Source: a virus (taxonomy: Duplodnaviria > Heunggongvirae > Uroviricota > Caudoviricetes). From it: 25,849 nt of DNA. A program made the translations under genes and the position numbers. Shown here one piece after another: positions 4,184-11,574 of the stretch. Under the pieces are notes generated by a model. The model saw only the letters and a list, made by a program, of their open reading frames with translations. It had not been told where the DNA came from and made no database searches. The stretch is taken from positions 1 through 25,849 of IMG/VR virus record IMGVR_UViG_3300028146_000009, one strand, 5' to 3'. Numbering within the stretch: the first letter of the stretch is position 1; the number at the start of each line of letters is the position of its first letter.

Positions 4184-4447
4184 ATGAAAGTAAAAGTTAA
4201 ATGTGAAGAAATTGAAGGCGAGGGACTTTTAGCACTTTTAGGAAAAAGAGTAACACTTTTTTGTATGAATTATATTTATACGGGAGAACTTGAAGGAGTA
4301 AATGATACTTGTGTAAAACTTCGAGACGCTTATATTGTTTATGAAACTGGAGCATTTACGGATACGAACTGGAAAGATGCCCAAAAACTTTCTAAAGAAT
4401 TTTATGTTCAAACCGCAGCAATTGAAAGTTTTGGCGTTGTAAAATGA
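4184..4447 (+). CDS. Sm/LSm-like fold protein
   Basis: AAGGAG RBS; LLGKRVTLFCMNYIYTGELEGVNDTCVKLRDAYIV resembles Sm1, FYVQTAAIESF resembles Sm2. Confidence 0.65.
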   Translation: MKVKVKCEEIEGEGLLALLGKRVTLFCMNYIYTGELEGVNDTCVKLRDAYIVYETGAFTDTNWKDAQKLSKEFYVQTAAIESFGVVK

Positions 4448-4533
4448 CTAGAGGATTAAAACAAAAATACCGATATGGGTCGGGGTCGGGGTCGCGGTCG
4501 GGGTCGGGGTCGCGGTCGTGGTCGGGGTCGTAA
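4444..4533 (+). CDS. 29-aa Ser-Gly/Arg/Trp dipeptide-repeat peptide (not in ORF track)
   Basis: ATGA overlap with the LSm-like gene; MTRGLKQKYRYGSGSGSRSGSGSRSWSGS*. Confidence 0.7.
   Translation: MTRGLKQKYRYGSGSGSRSGSGSRSWSGS
4477..4530 (+). repeat. 9 x NGGTCG hexamer tandem repeat
   Basis: GGGTCG GGGTCG GGGTCG CGGTCG GGGTCG GGGTCG CGGTCG TGGTCG GGGTCG. Confidence 0.95.
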
Positions 4534-4793: not shown

Positions 4794-5565
4794 AAGTGAA
4801 ATTGCATTAAGAATTGAAATGGTGGAAGAATTATTAAAAAAAGGACAAATTAAAACTGCTCAGGAATATTTTAATATTTTGAATCAAAGGCAATTAATGC
4901 CAATGCAAAAATTTAAAAAAGGCGACAAAGTAAAAGCATTGGTAGATGAATCAATTAGGATTCCACTATTAGTTAAAGGTCAAATATTAACAATTGATTC
5001 TTATATTCCAACACTAAATTCTGATTATTTTGTTGTTTTAGAAGAATTCAAAGCAAGCTATCCATGGCATAATTTTAAAGAAAGTGATTTTGAATTAGAA
5101 AGTTTAAATTCGGGTTCGGCATTAAGAACTTATAGTAATACAGTCACTGCAAACGGCGGGATATTACAACCAAGAACTGGTTATCAAGCAAATTCAAATC
5201 CTCAATCATATGGAACTTTAAAAACTAAAGCCGATGCTAAAAAACTTCTAAAACATGAATATGATGATAAAGGATATTCGGAAGATGAAATTCGAAATGA
5301 TTTTAAAACAGTTTTTAATTTAAGTGATGATGAAATCAAAGCGATTATAAAAGAAATTGAAGATGAAAATGCTAAATATCAATACACGTCACAATATATA
5401 AGTTTTAATCCCGGATATTCCATAACTTTACCAAATGGATTATCAGATCTTGAAGGTAAAAAACCTGAAACTAATGGGAATGTATGCATTCATCAGTGGG
5501 AAACTTATACCGGCCTAAGCCATACTGATACTTATTGCAAACTTTGTAATTTGGTTAAAAAATGA
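4786..5565 (+). CDS. multi-segment hypothetical protein (SH3/KOW-like segment, low-complexity linker, C-terminal CxHxW...CxxC)
   Basis: KFKKGDKVK...GQILTID; C-terminal CIHQWETYTGLSHTDTYCKLC. Confidence 0.65.
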   Translation: MIKSEIALRIEMVEELLKKGQIKTAQEYFNILNQRQLMPMQKFKKGDKVKALVDESIRIPLLVKGQILTIDSYIPTLNSDYFVVLEEFKASYPWHNFKESDFELESLNSGSALRTYSNTVTANGGILQPRTGYQANSNPQSYGTLKTKADAKKLLKHEYDDKGYSEDEIRNDFKTVFNLSDDEIKAIIKEIEDENAKYQYTSQYISFNPGYSITLPNGLSDLEGKKPETNGNVCIHQWETYTGLSHTDTYCKLCNLVKK

Positions 5566-6728
5566 AAAATAAACTTTCGAATTCTGCAGCAAATCTCTAT
5601 AATACCTGTGGCCGTAAATATAAATATCACTACCAAGATCGATTACGATCAAAATATATTTCCGGCGCGCTAATTATGGGGAGCGCATTCGACAAAGGAG
5701 TGAATGAACTTTTAACTTCTCGAGATTTGAAAAAAGCAACAGAAATCTTTGATTCAGAATTTGAAAATAATTGGATAAATTCCAAAAAATCATATATACC
5801 AACATCAGAATTCTTGGTTTACGCAAAAAAAGATTTTGATTATGAATTATTAAATGAAAATGATATTGTTCGGCTACAAAAGTTTTATTCTTTTGAGGAA
5901 CATAAACCATTAACTTTATTCAATTATATTTTAGAACAAAAAGAAGAAAAAGGATTTGAAAATTTAGAATTAATTGAAAAGCAATATTATAATTTAGCGA
6001 ATTGGTTATGCTTAAAAAGAAAAGCCCATCTAATGCTACAAGCCTATAATGAAAAAGTTTTACCAAAAATTAAATCAGTGATTGCAGTTCAAAAAGAATT
6101 CAACTTAGAAGGAAAATCTGGGGACACCTTGAATGGATTTATAGATTTAATTGTTGAATGGGAAGATGGTAAAAAATATGTACTAGATAATAAAACTTCA
6201 ACATATGAATACGAGCCCGATTCAGCATCTAAAAGTCAGCAGCTTATTTTATATTTTTATGCAGCAAATAAAGAAGGTTTAAAACTTGATGGCGCGGGCT
6301 TTATAGTTTGCTATAAACAAATTCAAAAGAATCGTATAAAGATTTGCGAAAAATGCGGGAATAATGGAACAGGTGGTAGGCATAAAACTTGCGATAGAGA
6401 ATTCCAAGAAATAGGTAAAATTGAAAAAGAAAGCTATCATAGTGCAGCAAAATTAATAGAAGGTAAAAAAGAAAGATGTAATGGTGCTTGGAAAGAAACC
6501 ATTAAGCCTGAGGCGCGTGTTGAAATCATTTTGAATGAAATTGCCCCCCAATCTCAAAATCTTGTAATACAGACCTTCTTGGGCGCTAACGAGGGTATCA
6601 AAATGGGACATTTCGGACCTAATTTAGATTCTTGTATGAAGTATGGCCAAAAATGCGCCTATTACGATAAGTGTTGGTTTGGGAAAGATGATGAATTAAT
6701 AACTTTGCCGGAAAAGAAAAATGACTGA
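5562..6728 (+). CDS. PD-(D/E)xK nuclease, RecB/AddB/Cas4-like exonuclease
   Basis: GFIDLIVEWEDGKKYVLDNKTS...SQQLILY catalytic motifs; one N-terminal Cys (YNTCGRKY) and three C-terminal Cys (CMKYGQKCAYYDKC). Confidence 0.88.
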   Translation: MKNKLSNSAANLYNTCGRKYKYHYQDRLRSKYISGALIMGSAFDKGVNELLTSRDLKKATEIFDSEFENNWINSKKSYIPTSEFLVYAKKDFDYELLNENDIVRLQKFYSFEEHKPLTLFNYILEQKEEKGFENLELIEKQYYNLANWLCLKRKAHLMLQAYNEKVLPKIKSVIAVQKEFNLEGKSGDTLNGFIDLIVEWEDGKKYVLDNKTSTYEYEPDSASKSQQLILYFYAANKEGLKLDGAGFIVCYKQIQKNRIKICEKCGNNGTGGRHKTCDREFQEIGKIEKESYHSAAKLIEGKKERCNGAWKETIKPEARVEIILNEIAPQSQNLVIQTFLGANEGIKMGHFGPNLDSCMKYGQKCAYYDKCWFGKDDELITLPEKKND

Positions 6729-8734: not shown

Positions 8735-8938
8735 ATGTTCAAATATGGAGATAAAGTAAAAGTTAAAGATGATTTTTATAATAATCCAGTAGGTAGAATT
8801 GTTGGAAGAATAAAAAATTTAGGAATAGAGGGAAATAAATATACTGTAGAAATGATTTTTTCTGGAAATACTCCATATACTGATAAAGTTTATAATGATT
8901 ATTATAAAAAAGATTTAAAGAAAGTTGGTAAAAAATGA
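8735..8938 (+). CDS. small SH3/KOW-like hypothetical protein
   Basis: MFKYGDKVKVKDDFYNNPVGRIV pattern. Confidence 0.6.
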   Translation: MFKYGDKVKVKDDFYNNPVGRIVGRIKNLGIEGNKYTVEMIFSGNTPYTDKVYNDYYKKDLKKVGKK

Positions 8939-9540
8939 ATCGAAGTGAGTCAATTTTAAAACTAGCCCCGGCCCTTTTAAAAGTTCAAAGAGAAATGGGT
9001 GACGCAAAAAAAGGTACAGCAAATACCTACTTTAAAAGCTCTTATGCTGATTTAAATTCTGTGAGAGAAACTGCATTGCCAGTTTTAAATGCAAATGGAA
9101 TCGCATGTTTGCAACCAACGGTAGAAGTTAATATGAAAAATTTCGTAGAAACAGTTTTAGTTCATGAATCGGGAGAATGGCTTTCAAGTTTAACTGAGAT
9201 TAAGAATTCTAAAGGTGATGCTCAAACTGAAGGCTCTGGAATCTCTTATGCTCGAAGATATGGTCTTCAAAGTCTATTAAATATTGGCGCGGTCGATGAC
9301 GATGCAGAAAGTACTATGAATCGCTCTAAACCGGCCCAAGTTGAATCAAAAACAACCCAAACTGTCCAATCCACCACTGAAGTTAAAAAGGGTCCAGGTA
9401 GGCCAGCTAAAGCTGCTGTAGCAGTACCAACCCCGGCACTGGTAAAAGAAACTCCAGTAACAAAACTTCCAACTAAAGTCGCAAATGGATATTCTGGAAA
9501 TGGAACGCATAATCAAACCGTTAATGAAGATGAATGGTAA
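8935..9540 (+). CDS. erf: ERF-family single-strand annealing protein
   Basis: YFKSSYADL, GSGISYARRYGLQSLLNI and DDDAE motifs; low-complexity C-terminal tail. Confidence 0.92.
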   Translation: MNRSESILKLAPALLKVQREMGDAKKGTANTYFKSSYADLNSVRETALPVLNANGIACLQPTVEVNMKNFVETVLVHESGEWLSSLTEIKNSKGDAQTEGSGISYARRYGLQSLLNIGAVDDDAESTMNRSKPAQVESKTTQTVQSTTEVKKGPGRPAKAAVAVPTPALVKETPVTKLPTKVANGYSGNGTHNQTVNEDEW

Positions 9541-9543
9541 GTT

Positions 9544-9643
9544 ATTGCAGCGTCGTGGAAGGACACGAAATGGTAGGTACAGTCGAGAAAGCCCGAAAAG
9601 GCCATGGCTTTCATTTTAGTTGGAATCAAGCCCAACCTGCAAT
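9544..9643 (+). ncRNA. tRNA-like structured RNA, non-canonical
   Basis: ATTGCAG(9544-50)/CTGCAAT(9637-43) closing stem abutting a T-arm-like GTTGG-AATCAAGC-CCAAC (9619-36); D-arm-like CGTCGTGGAAGGACACG; internal GAAAGCC/GGCTTTC hairpin. Confidence 0.65.
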
Positions 9644-9657
9644 TTTTAAGGAATTTT

Positions 9658-10047
9658 ATGACAAAAGATGAACGACTTTATTTAAATGATTTATCCAAAA
9701 AATTATATGGAAAAACTTCACATTGGCAAAAAATGCTAAAAGGTGATAAAAAACCCATGGAAGAAATTCTAGAGGATGGAACTTCAAGGGTTTATACGGG
9801 ACTTCATTATTCAACTATTGAAGAAGTAAAAAAGATTATGGAAGATCTTTCCAAGGAAGAAGATGAATTAAAAGCTAAAAATGAATTGGAAGCAGAGGCA
9901 TTAAAACAAGCCGCTGAAATTAAAGAAAAGGCAGGCCAGCCTGGGCATTTTGTTTTAGATAATGAATCTTTTGATAAATTGGCAGAAGAATTAAAAGAAG
10001 AAAAACATGATCCAGTAATAGATGTTTTAGAAACTGTTGGGGATTAA
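9658..10047 (+). CDS. hypothetical protein with acidic coiled coil (start revised from 9604)
   Basis: AAGGA upstream of ATG 9658; the 9604 start lies inside the RNA element. Confidence 0.7.
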   Translation: MTKDERLYLNDLSKKLYGKTSHWQKMLKGDKKPMEEILEDGTSRVYTGLHYSTIEEVKKIMEDLSKEEDELKAKNELEAEALKQAAEIKEKAGQPGHFVLDNESFDKLAEELKEEKHDPVIDVLETVGD

Positions 10048-11448: not shown

Positions 11449-11453
11449 AAGCT

Positions 11454-11574
11454 AAGCCAGAACCCTGATGCATTGCTATGGGTTTAAAGTAGGGCCATAA
11501 GGACTTGATGTTTTAATAAGGTGTCATGGCGTGTGGCTAGGACTAAACCACTACTTATTAATTCGTGCTGGCTT
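11454..11574 (+). ncRNA. candidate multibranch structured RNA or 5' leader of the primase-helicase gene
   Basis: Nested pairings AAGCCAG/CTGGCTT, AACCC/GGGTT, AAGTAG/CTACTT, GCCAT/ATGGC, TGG/CCA. Confidence 0.45.

Follow-up and report, generated by a model that had tools for sequence, protein, structure and literature searches.

A tRNA-shaped RNA gene downstream of erf in an uncultured phage is a member of a widespread, uncatalogued family of structured RNAs with exchangeable inserts

The stretch of DNA analysed here (25,849 nucleotides; hereafter the window) constitutes the first 25.8 kb of the 89.9-kb genome of an uncultured phage with 33% GC, in which no tRNA genes were found. Within a co-oriented block of early and replication genes, a tRNA-shaped non-coding RNA gene (9544-9643, + strand) fills the gap between the stop codon of erf (8935-9540, +; Pfam ERF, PHROG 2324), which encodes a ssDNA-annealing protein and which we regard as context rather than as a partner, and the ribosome-binding site of a 129-aa ORF of no assigned function (9658-10047, +). 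The sequence-only reading of this DNA had already placed the element in that gap, and the placement is confirmed: it begins 3 nt after the upstream stop and ends 14 nt before the following ATG. An in-frame ATG at 9604, within the RNA, is not the conserved start of the downstream ORF; we take 9658 as the true start, because most of the syntenic homologs begin at the same Met. The sequence of 9544-9643 is identical in an independent ENA assembly, which excludes an assembly artefact. A sigma-70-like promoter at 9486-9513 (9/12) does not rise above chance, and the search for a terminator was negative. Elsewhere in the window, a GC-rich tandem repeat of about 24 nt at positions 1-230 continues at the end of the genome, across both ends of the record, being probably a coding repeat at an assembly break, and at 4184-4520 an LSm-like ORF, with no Pfam match and no homolog in the 49 carrier genomes, is followed by GC-rich hexamer repeats.

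The anatomy of the window copy is that of a tRNA without its decoding part. A closing, acceptor-like stem of 7 bp (9544-9550 with 9637-9643; all seven pairs show two-sided changes in homologs) is followed by the linker C8-R9 (C9551-G9552; C8 is kept in 218/219 copies of the family described below) and by a D-like arm (9553-9568), in which a 5-bp stem (9553-9557/9564-9568), all five pairs of which covary in our alignment A2, carries a 6-nt GAWGGA loop (9558-9563) with the equivalents of G18 and G19. A variable insert of 49 nt (9569-9617) replaces the anticodon and variable arms. It leads to A48 (A9618), and the latter to a T arm (the two together at 9618-9636) with a 5-bp stem (9619-9623/9632-9636) and an 8-nt loop (9624-9631) of the A54 subtype, with one extra base after position 54; no CCA follows the 3' strand of the closing stem. 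The closing stem, the T-like arm with its 8-nt loop and the absence of CCA thus lie where they had been read in the sequence, as does a centre of about 50 nt without an anticodon loop; the 7-bp hairpin read in that centre (9587-9593/9606-9612) is present but lacks independent support, because the 49 nt by themselves fold at z -0.1, and the folding energy of the whole element (z -1.17) is not above chance either. Sequence searches revealed no homologs of the insert 9569-9617, BLAST of the element against phage records yielded chance matches only, none of them to T5-like phages, and E. coli genomes gave no match. Checks with ARAGORN and Rfam had been proposed together with the first reading: ARAGORN calls no canonical tRNA at 9544-9643 under either default or relaxed thresholds, and Rfam matches neither the window element nor any family member, over the window and the carrier loci. 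A 33-codon ORF that starts inside the insert (9570-9671, +), with AAGGA of the D-loop as its ribosome-binding site, is not a feature of the family, in which such arrangements number 17 against 18.9 expected.

It is practically certain that 9544-9643 is a real member of a conserved family of structured RNAs. An 18-nt T-arm pattern retrieved a homolog with a different closing stem, a D-plus-T pattern retrieved 43 viral contigs, and with further T-only and loop-free patterns at least 219 distinct copies were gathered, totals from these patterns being lower bounds. Further copies occur in metagenomes and in bacterial genome assemblies labelled Proteobacteria, Acidobacteriota, Verrucomicrobiota, Bdellovibrionales and Patescibacteria. 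At least six of the seven closing-stem pairs form in a fixed register in 121 of 132 pattern matches, among which there was no selection for pairing. In alignment A2, 99.1% of the cells are paired (26-43% in slid controls) and 14 of the 17 pairs exhibit two-sided changes, with covariation in all three stems of the frame, counts that should be read bearing in mind that the copies are not phylogenetically independent and that the bases of the patterns are invariant by construction. The covariance model R1, built without the window sequence, finds exactly 9544-9643 (69.2 bits, E ~2e-13), which is the only copy in the source genome, and detects unannotated copies in five cultured phages, namely Caulobacter phage DMCA (PQ480021, 25554-25686), Acidovorax AP1, Alcaligenes QDWS595, Iodobacter PhiPLPE (whose copy belonged to the pattern set but not to A2) and Pseudanabaena Pan3. 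The frame is therefore conserved as an RNA structure, and the family is widespread in phages, uncatalogued and absent from Rfam; a check by covariance model had likewise been suggested at the outset, and the homologs with compensatory changes that it called for exist. Literature searches with the exact motifs of the frame returned unrelated primer matches only, and the openly accessible topic literature contained no description of the family, which may nevertheless be present among the 10,006 viral candidate RNAs of PMC10690425.

Across the copies the frame comprises, in order, a closing stem of 7-21 bp, C8-R9, a 5-bp D stem with the GAWGGA loop, an insert of 34-186 nt, A48, a 5-bp T stem and an 8-nt T-loop. 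In tRNA numbering, the D stem corresponds to 10-14/21-25 and its loop to G15, A16, W17, G18, G19 and A20. Closing stems are mostly of 8-9 bp, yet 74/219 reach at least 13 bp; such long stems would pair the leader, and they may hinder RNase P. In long-stem members such as L008, L083, L127 and L128, a small hairpin of the GAAA type recurs immediately before the closing stem; this hairpin is absent from Rfam and suggests an RNA cassette of several units. R9 tends to track the third D pair (G9 with G-C in 191 copies; with A-U, A9 in 9 copies versus G9 in 3), a tendency that resembles the 9:12-23 triple of tRNA, and the pair 14-21 of the D stem covaries between G-C and U-A. Among 100 members retrieved with the T-loop left free, its length is 8 nt in 89, 9 nt in 9 and 7 nt in 2; U55 and C56 are present in 87 and A58 in all of the 89 loops of 8 nt, and U54 is the commoner form in these freely sampled loops, while the window copy has A54. 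The GG of the D-loop was fixed by the search patterns. Since U55, C56 and A58 are kept, we infer that a tRNA-like elbow with G18-U55 and G19-C56 contacts can form, and the strong covariation bears out the proposed tRNA mimic, a conserved one that retains the elbow but no anticodon arm. [quoted passage not shown] N-CCA follows a 7-bp stem in one copy of 219, and CCA is thus not encoded. TCA or CCA after short stems is enriched about twofold (29 against a background of 13.5 +/- 3.4), which makes post-transcriptional addition of CCA possible. Two other identities were considered for these arms and rejected. The T hairpin resembles that of the twister ribozyme, but the would-be pseudoknot bases covary within the D stem and Rfam gives no match; the ANGGA of the D-loop, which we took for a possible sponge site for CsrA, is unlikely to be one, being a single site in the wrong register, in carriers that infect Caulobacter and cyanobacteria.

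In contrast to the frame, the inserts are highly diverse and fall into 193 clusters among the 219 copies. They are exchanged between phages: two copies (L127 and L129) with flanks identical at 98% on both sides contain unrelated inserts of 126 and 86 nt, another pair (L174/L201; flanks 95% and 98% identical) also has unrelated inserts, and, conversely, the pairs L011/L227, L057/L241 and L030/L184 each share an insert at 92-94% identity within unrelated flanks. Recurring inserts also turn up in different T-loop subtypes. Within insert lineages, compensatory changes are in excess (51 against 11.7 +/- 3.1 under a substitution-shuffling null, over 19 pairs counted in both directions) and broken pairs are depleted (63 against 120), which argues that related inserts are conserved as folds. 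Taken together, all inserts fold only slightly better than their shuffles (mean z -0.42). No helix closes the insert as an anticodon stem would, at any register, and anticodon-like loops are found in 4/219 inserts (0-3 in shuffles), a frequency near the shuffled level that gives no support to the earlier suggestion of a decoy for anticodon nucleases. The inserts contain no reading frame, their lengths being random modulo 3, and no common motif beyond an enrichment of CCGAAA and occasional T-loop hairpins (5 inserts against 0.4 expected). Parts resembling tRNA are present within the inserts of L159 (2498-2658, phage Pan3), where they form a nested D/T unit, and of L157 and L019.

The genomic setting of the family is that of an accessory gene. 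Eight syntenic relatives of the source phage, whose erf is 69-76% identical or which were found via the downstream ORF, lack the RNA at the erf junction: the junction is empty in L001, L281, L283 and one Logan contig, holds unrelated ORFs of 51-69 aa in L276, L279 and L280, and in L278 (3700-3796) is occupied by an unrelated, hairpin-like non-coding spacer of 97 nt. Thus, the RNA occupies a variable slot and is gained and lost independently of its neighbours. Over 119 loci no protein family is common to more than four, and no endonuclease, transposase or reverse transcriptase family is linked to the gene. Several homologs abut genes like the window copy does, many sit in free-standing RNA cassettes or tRNA clusters, and 29/219 have a same-strand tRNA within 1 kb, in some cases 9 nt away. 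There is usually one copy per genome, but a large tRNA cluster in one phage contains two. At L326 (3400-7530, in the 177-kb phage G045), a Ro60 gene lies within a large tRNA cluster and is followed by a family member, a YrlA-like RNA, a match to Sec-like tRNA, additional tRNA-like RNAs of non-canonical form and another member of the family. Neither an LSm-like protein nor a T4-type RNA ligase, which the sequence-only reading had offered as possible binders of the RNA, was found in the 49 carrier genomes (0/49 for each, a weak result as neither search had a positive control that rang).

A second accessory slot precedes the primase-helicase gene of the window, where a structured RNA module of 120 nt (11451-11570, +) follows a terminator-like hairpin. 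This module is conserved elsewhere, with two-sided changes in 14 of 31 consensus pairs over 5 sequences, and is not in Rfam. The same slot in relatives contains about 100 nt or, in L281 and L283, an inserted tRNA-like RNA with a Leu-type D arm; the latter RNAs (6021-6275 and 4937-5171, respectively) lack an anticodon and are flanked by T-rich direct repeats. The module is frameless in the window, but in L328, L332 and L334 it is enclosed by a sister frame (in L332 at about 1900-2140, +), which agrees with the main frame in closing stem, linker and 5-bp D stem but carries an extra hairpin within its D loop, has an 8-nt T-loop of another sequence and receives no score from R1; in L331 a T arm alone follows the module. 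The module exists both with and without a frame, so some of the inserts, at least, are RNA modules in their own right. One of its loops recurs in two inserts of the main family.

The explanation that we put forward, with some reserve, is that of an accessory small-RNA gene, in which a processed and stable elbow frame would present an exchangeable folded payload, probably for conflict between phage and host or between phages. Of its parts, expression as a discrete RNA is probable, and we lean towards the frame being a carrier of a functional insert; a role in conflict is the more doubtful element. The RNA would be transcribed within the early erf operon here, and within tRNA clusters or RNA cassettes elsewhere. 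Host tRNA-processing enzymes would release a stable RNA of about 100 nt, with RNase P acting at the 5' end of the closing stem and endo- and exonucleases in the U-rich trailer, and the G18/G19:U55/C56 elbow together with the closed ends would shield the insert. The active part would be the insert, acting most likely as a ligand for a protein or as a decoy in phage-host or phage-phage conflict, a role that would explain its turnover, and the conserved D and T arms probably double as short homology handles for insert exchange. We favour the carrier frame because of the diversity, swapping and covariation of the inserts, the frameless module, the accessory slot, the proximity to tRNAs and the frame of T5 RNA2 (see below). 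On the other hand, insert covariation could mean merely that any insert must be compact, and no target, partner or conserved neighbour was found in the own locus, in the genome or in the 119 loci. It is tantalizing to consider, as a rather unlikely extension, a natural tRNA-scaffold system, in which a non-decoding frame excised and stabilised by the host tRNA machinery would display hundreds of interchangeable RNA effector modules (e.g. decoys or inhibitors of defence proteins), exchanged via the arms, as the RNA counterpart of small anti-defence ORFs in the same slot of relatives.

Alternatively, the frame itself could be the effector and act as a decoy or sink, drawing off host proteins that recognise the elbow or the acceptor-T helix (tRNA sensors, toxins that target tRNA, or enzymes of processing or modification), with the insert as a filler that need only fold. 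We regard this as somewhat unlikely. Conservation is indeed much stronger in the frame than in the insert, the fixed state of the non-canonical C8, A48 and 8-nt T-loop is what one specific binder would predict, and the inserts are on average weakly structured; however, insert lineages persist in unrelated phages with compensatory changes, the insert module of the sister frame exists without it, and the RNA has neither CCA nor a fixed acceptor identity (G3-U70 in 1/219).

The tight placement of the window copy between a stop codon and an ATG, shared by several homologs that abut genes, is what would be expected of a cis-acting processing or punctuation signal, namely a point at which RNase P/E would divide the polycistronic mRNA and thereby tune it, and the tRNA-like YrlA is indeed cut by RNase P (PMC4201824). 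However, the eight syntenic relatives, whose junction is empty or taken up by unrelated small ORFs or an unrelated spacer, contradict the earlier idea that the polycistron needs such a signal, many homologs sit in free-standing cassettes or tRNA clusters, and the conserved inserts would be left unexplained; cleavage may be a by-product, and we consider the alternative improbable. Of similarly low probability is a selfish or near-neutral mobile RNA cassette, spread by recombination through the conserved arms and harmless since it is excised from transcripts. Its strict structural conservation, usual single copy and lack of linked endonuclease, transposase or reverse transcriptase families speak against this scenario, which would otherwise accommodate the patchy distribution, the swapping and the absence of a gene context, as well as the tolerance of laboratory T5 to the loss of rna2, spanned by the T5Mos deletion 30661-38625 (PMC10802454).

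An antisense or guide function of the insert is quite improbable. Hypervariability and exchange do recall immunity-specificity modules, such as the c4 RNA of P1 and the CI RNA of P4, phage RNAs processed by RNase P (PMC5499578), but self-complementary targets do not exceed the shuffled level on the phage side, to which the scan was confined: the longest insert matches are 9.3-9.4 nt versus 9.3 nt in shuffles for the fetched loci of the other copies, and 10 versus 10.6 nt for the window copy against its whole genome; moreover, related inserts keep their pairing via two-sided changes. Finally, an orphan Y RNA (a ligand of Ro60) or an intron-split tRNA is very improbable: the long terminal stems and the D-before-T order resemble Yrn1 of D. 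radiodurans and one carrier encodes Ro60 about 100 nt upstream of a family copy, but Ro60 is absent from the source genome and from 47 of the 49 carriers, the two Ro60 phages each have a separate weak YrlA-like match, the Ro motif is not enriched, and a split tRNA would need an anticodon-stem helix, which the inserts lack at every register.

We hope that the family will offer a testable system, as its frame is fixed, its natural inserts number in the hundreds, some phage pairs are near-isogenic but for the insert, and relatives without the gene exist alongside cultured carriers. Should the inserts be effectors, they would amount to a large and so far unexplored stock of RNA aptamers of phages; in any case, this is a common phage RNA gene overlooked by ARAGORN and Rfam. 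What is new is this conserved, uncatalogued family, while the tRNA-like stable RNAs of phages T5 and T4 are a known but unexplained kind, the two genomes having long been annotated with such RNAs without a function.

Compared with tRNAs proper, the family shares with tRNA-Sec the long D stem with a 14-21 pair and often an acceptor stem of 8-9 bp (tRNA-Sec itself has a long acceptor stem; PMC7609411), and with type II tRNA-Leu the GUG/CAC core, but it differs from both by C8, A48, the 8-nt T-loop and the lack of an anticodon arm and of CCA. A canonical tRNA was rejected, since there is no 5-bp anticodon stem with a 7-nt loop, and C8, A48 and an 8-nt T-loop stand in place of U8, Y48 and 7 nt, only the elbow bases being as expected; tmRNA was rejected on the rarity of G3-U70, the lack of CCA and of a tag frame, and the negative ARAGORN result. 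YrlA/Yrn1 (Rfam RF02553) is an elbow mimic as well, and its long terminal stem has a parallel in a third of the members; however, in YrlA T precedes D, a GNCGAAN0-1G Ro motif is present and the Ro60 gene lies within 4 kb (PMC4201824), whereas here D precedes T and the Ro motif in the terminal stem is not above expectation (4 versus 4.9). The c4 RNAs of P1/P7 and CI of P4, small RNase P-processed phage RNAs with a specificity part, provide an analogy of mode of action only: they have no T-loop (PMC5499578) and find their targets in their own genome, and the window family has neither a self-target nor a match to Rfam C4.

Closer relatives may be sought among the stable RNAs of phages without an assigned function, i.e. 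T5 RNA1 and RNA2 and T4 rnaC and rnaD (species 1 and 2), of which RNA1 and rnaC possess a T arm and no anticodon arm. In T5 RNA1, a Leu-type D arm follows U8, as opposed to C8 and the covarying 5-bp D stem of the window family, and R1 gives no score to RNA1, to rnaC and rnaD, or to the Leu-arm RNAs of L281 and L283. Hence, of the Leu-like D-arm originally read in the window, the D-like arm stands, but it is not simply a shortened Leu arm: the 5-bp stem after C8-R9, as in T5 RNA2, has one pair more than had been drawn and carries a 6-nt loop. T5 RNA2 (rna2, T5s06; NC_005859, 32959-33083), annotated as a "tRNA-like stable RNA with unknown functions", is the closest known RNA, similar in kind and a putative relative. 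It has a closing stem of 7-8 bp, C8-G9, a 5-bp D stem with a GA-U-GG..A loop, a long insert where the anticodon arm would be, a G-C-N-G-G T stem preceded by A, and no encoded CCA, and it is the best non-member match of R1, at its annotated coordinates (15.3 bits, E 0.26, compared to 57-69 bits for members in the same search). Nonetheless, its D-loop of 8 nt and canonical T-loop of 7 nt differ from the 6 and 8 nt of the window family, and its insert is maintained from one T5-like phage to another (418 records), whereas the window family swaps inserts.
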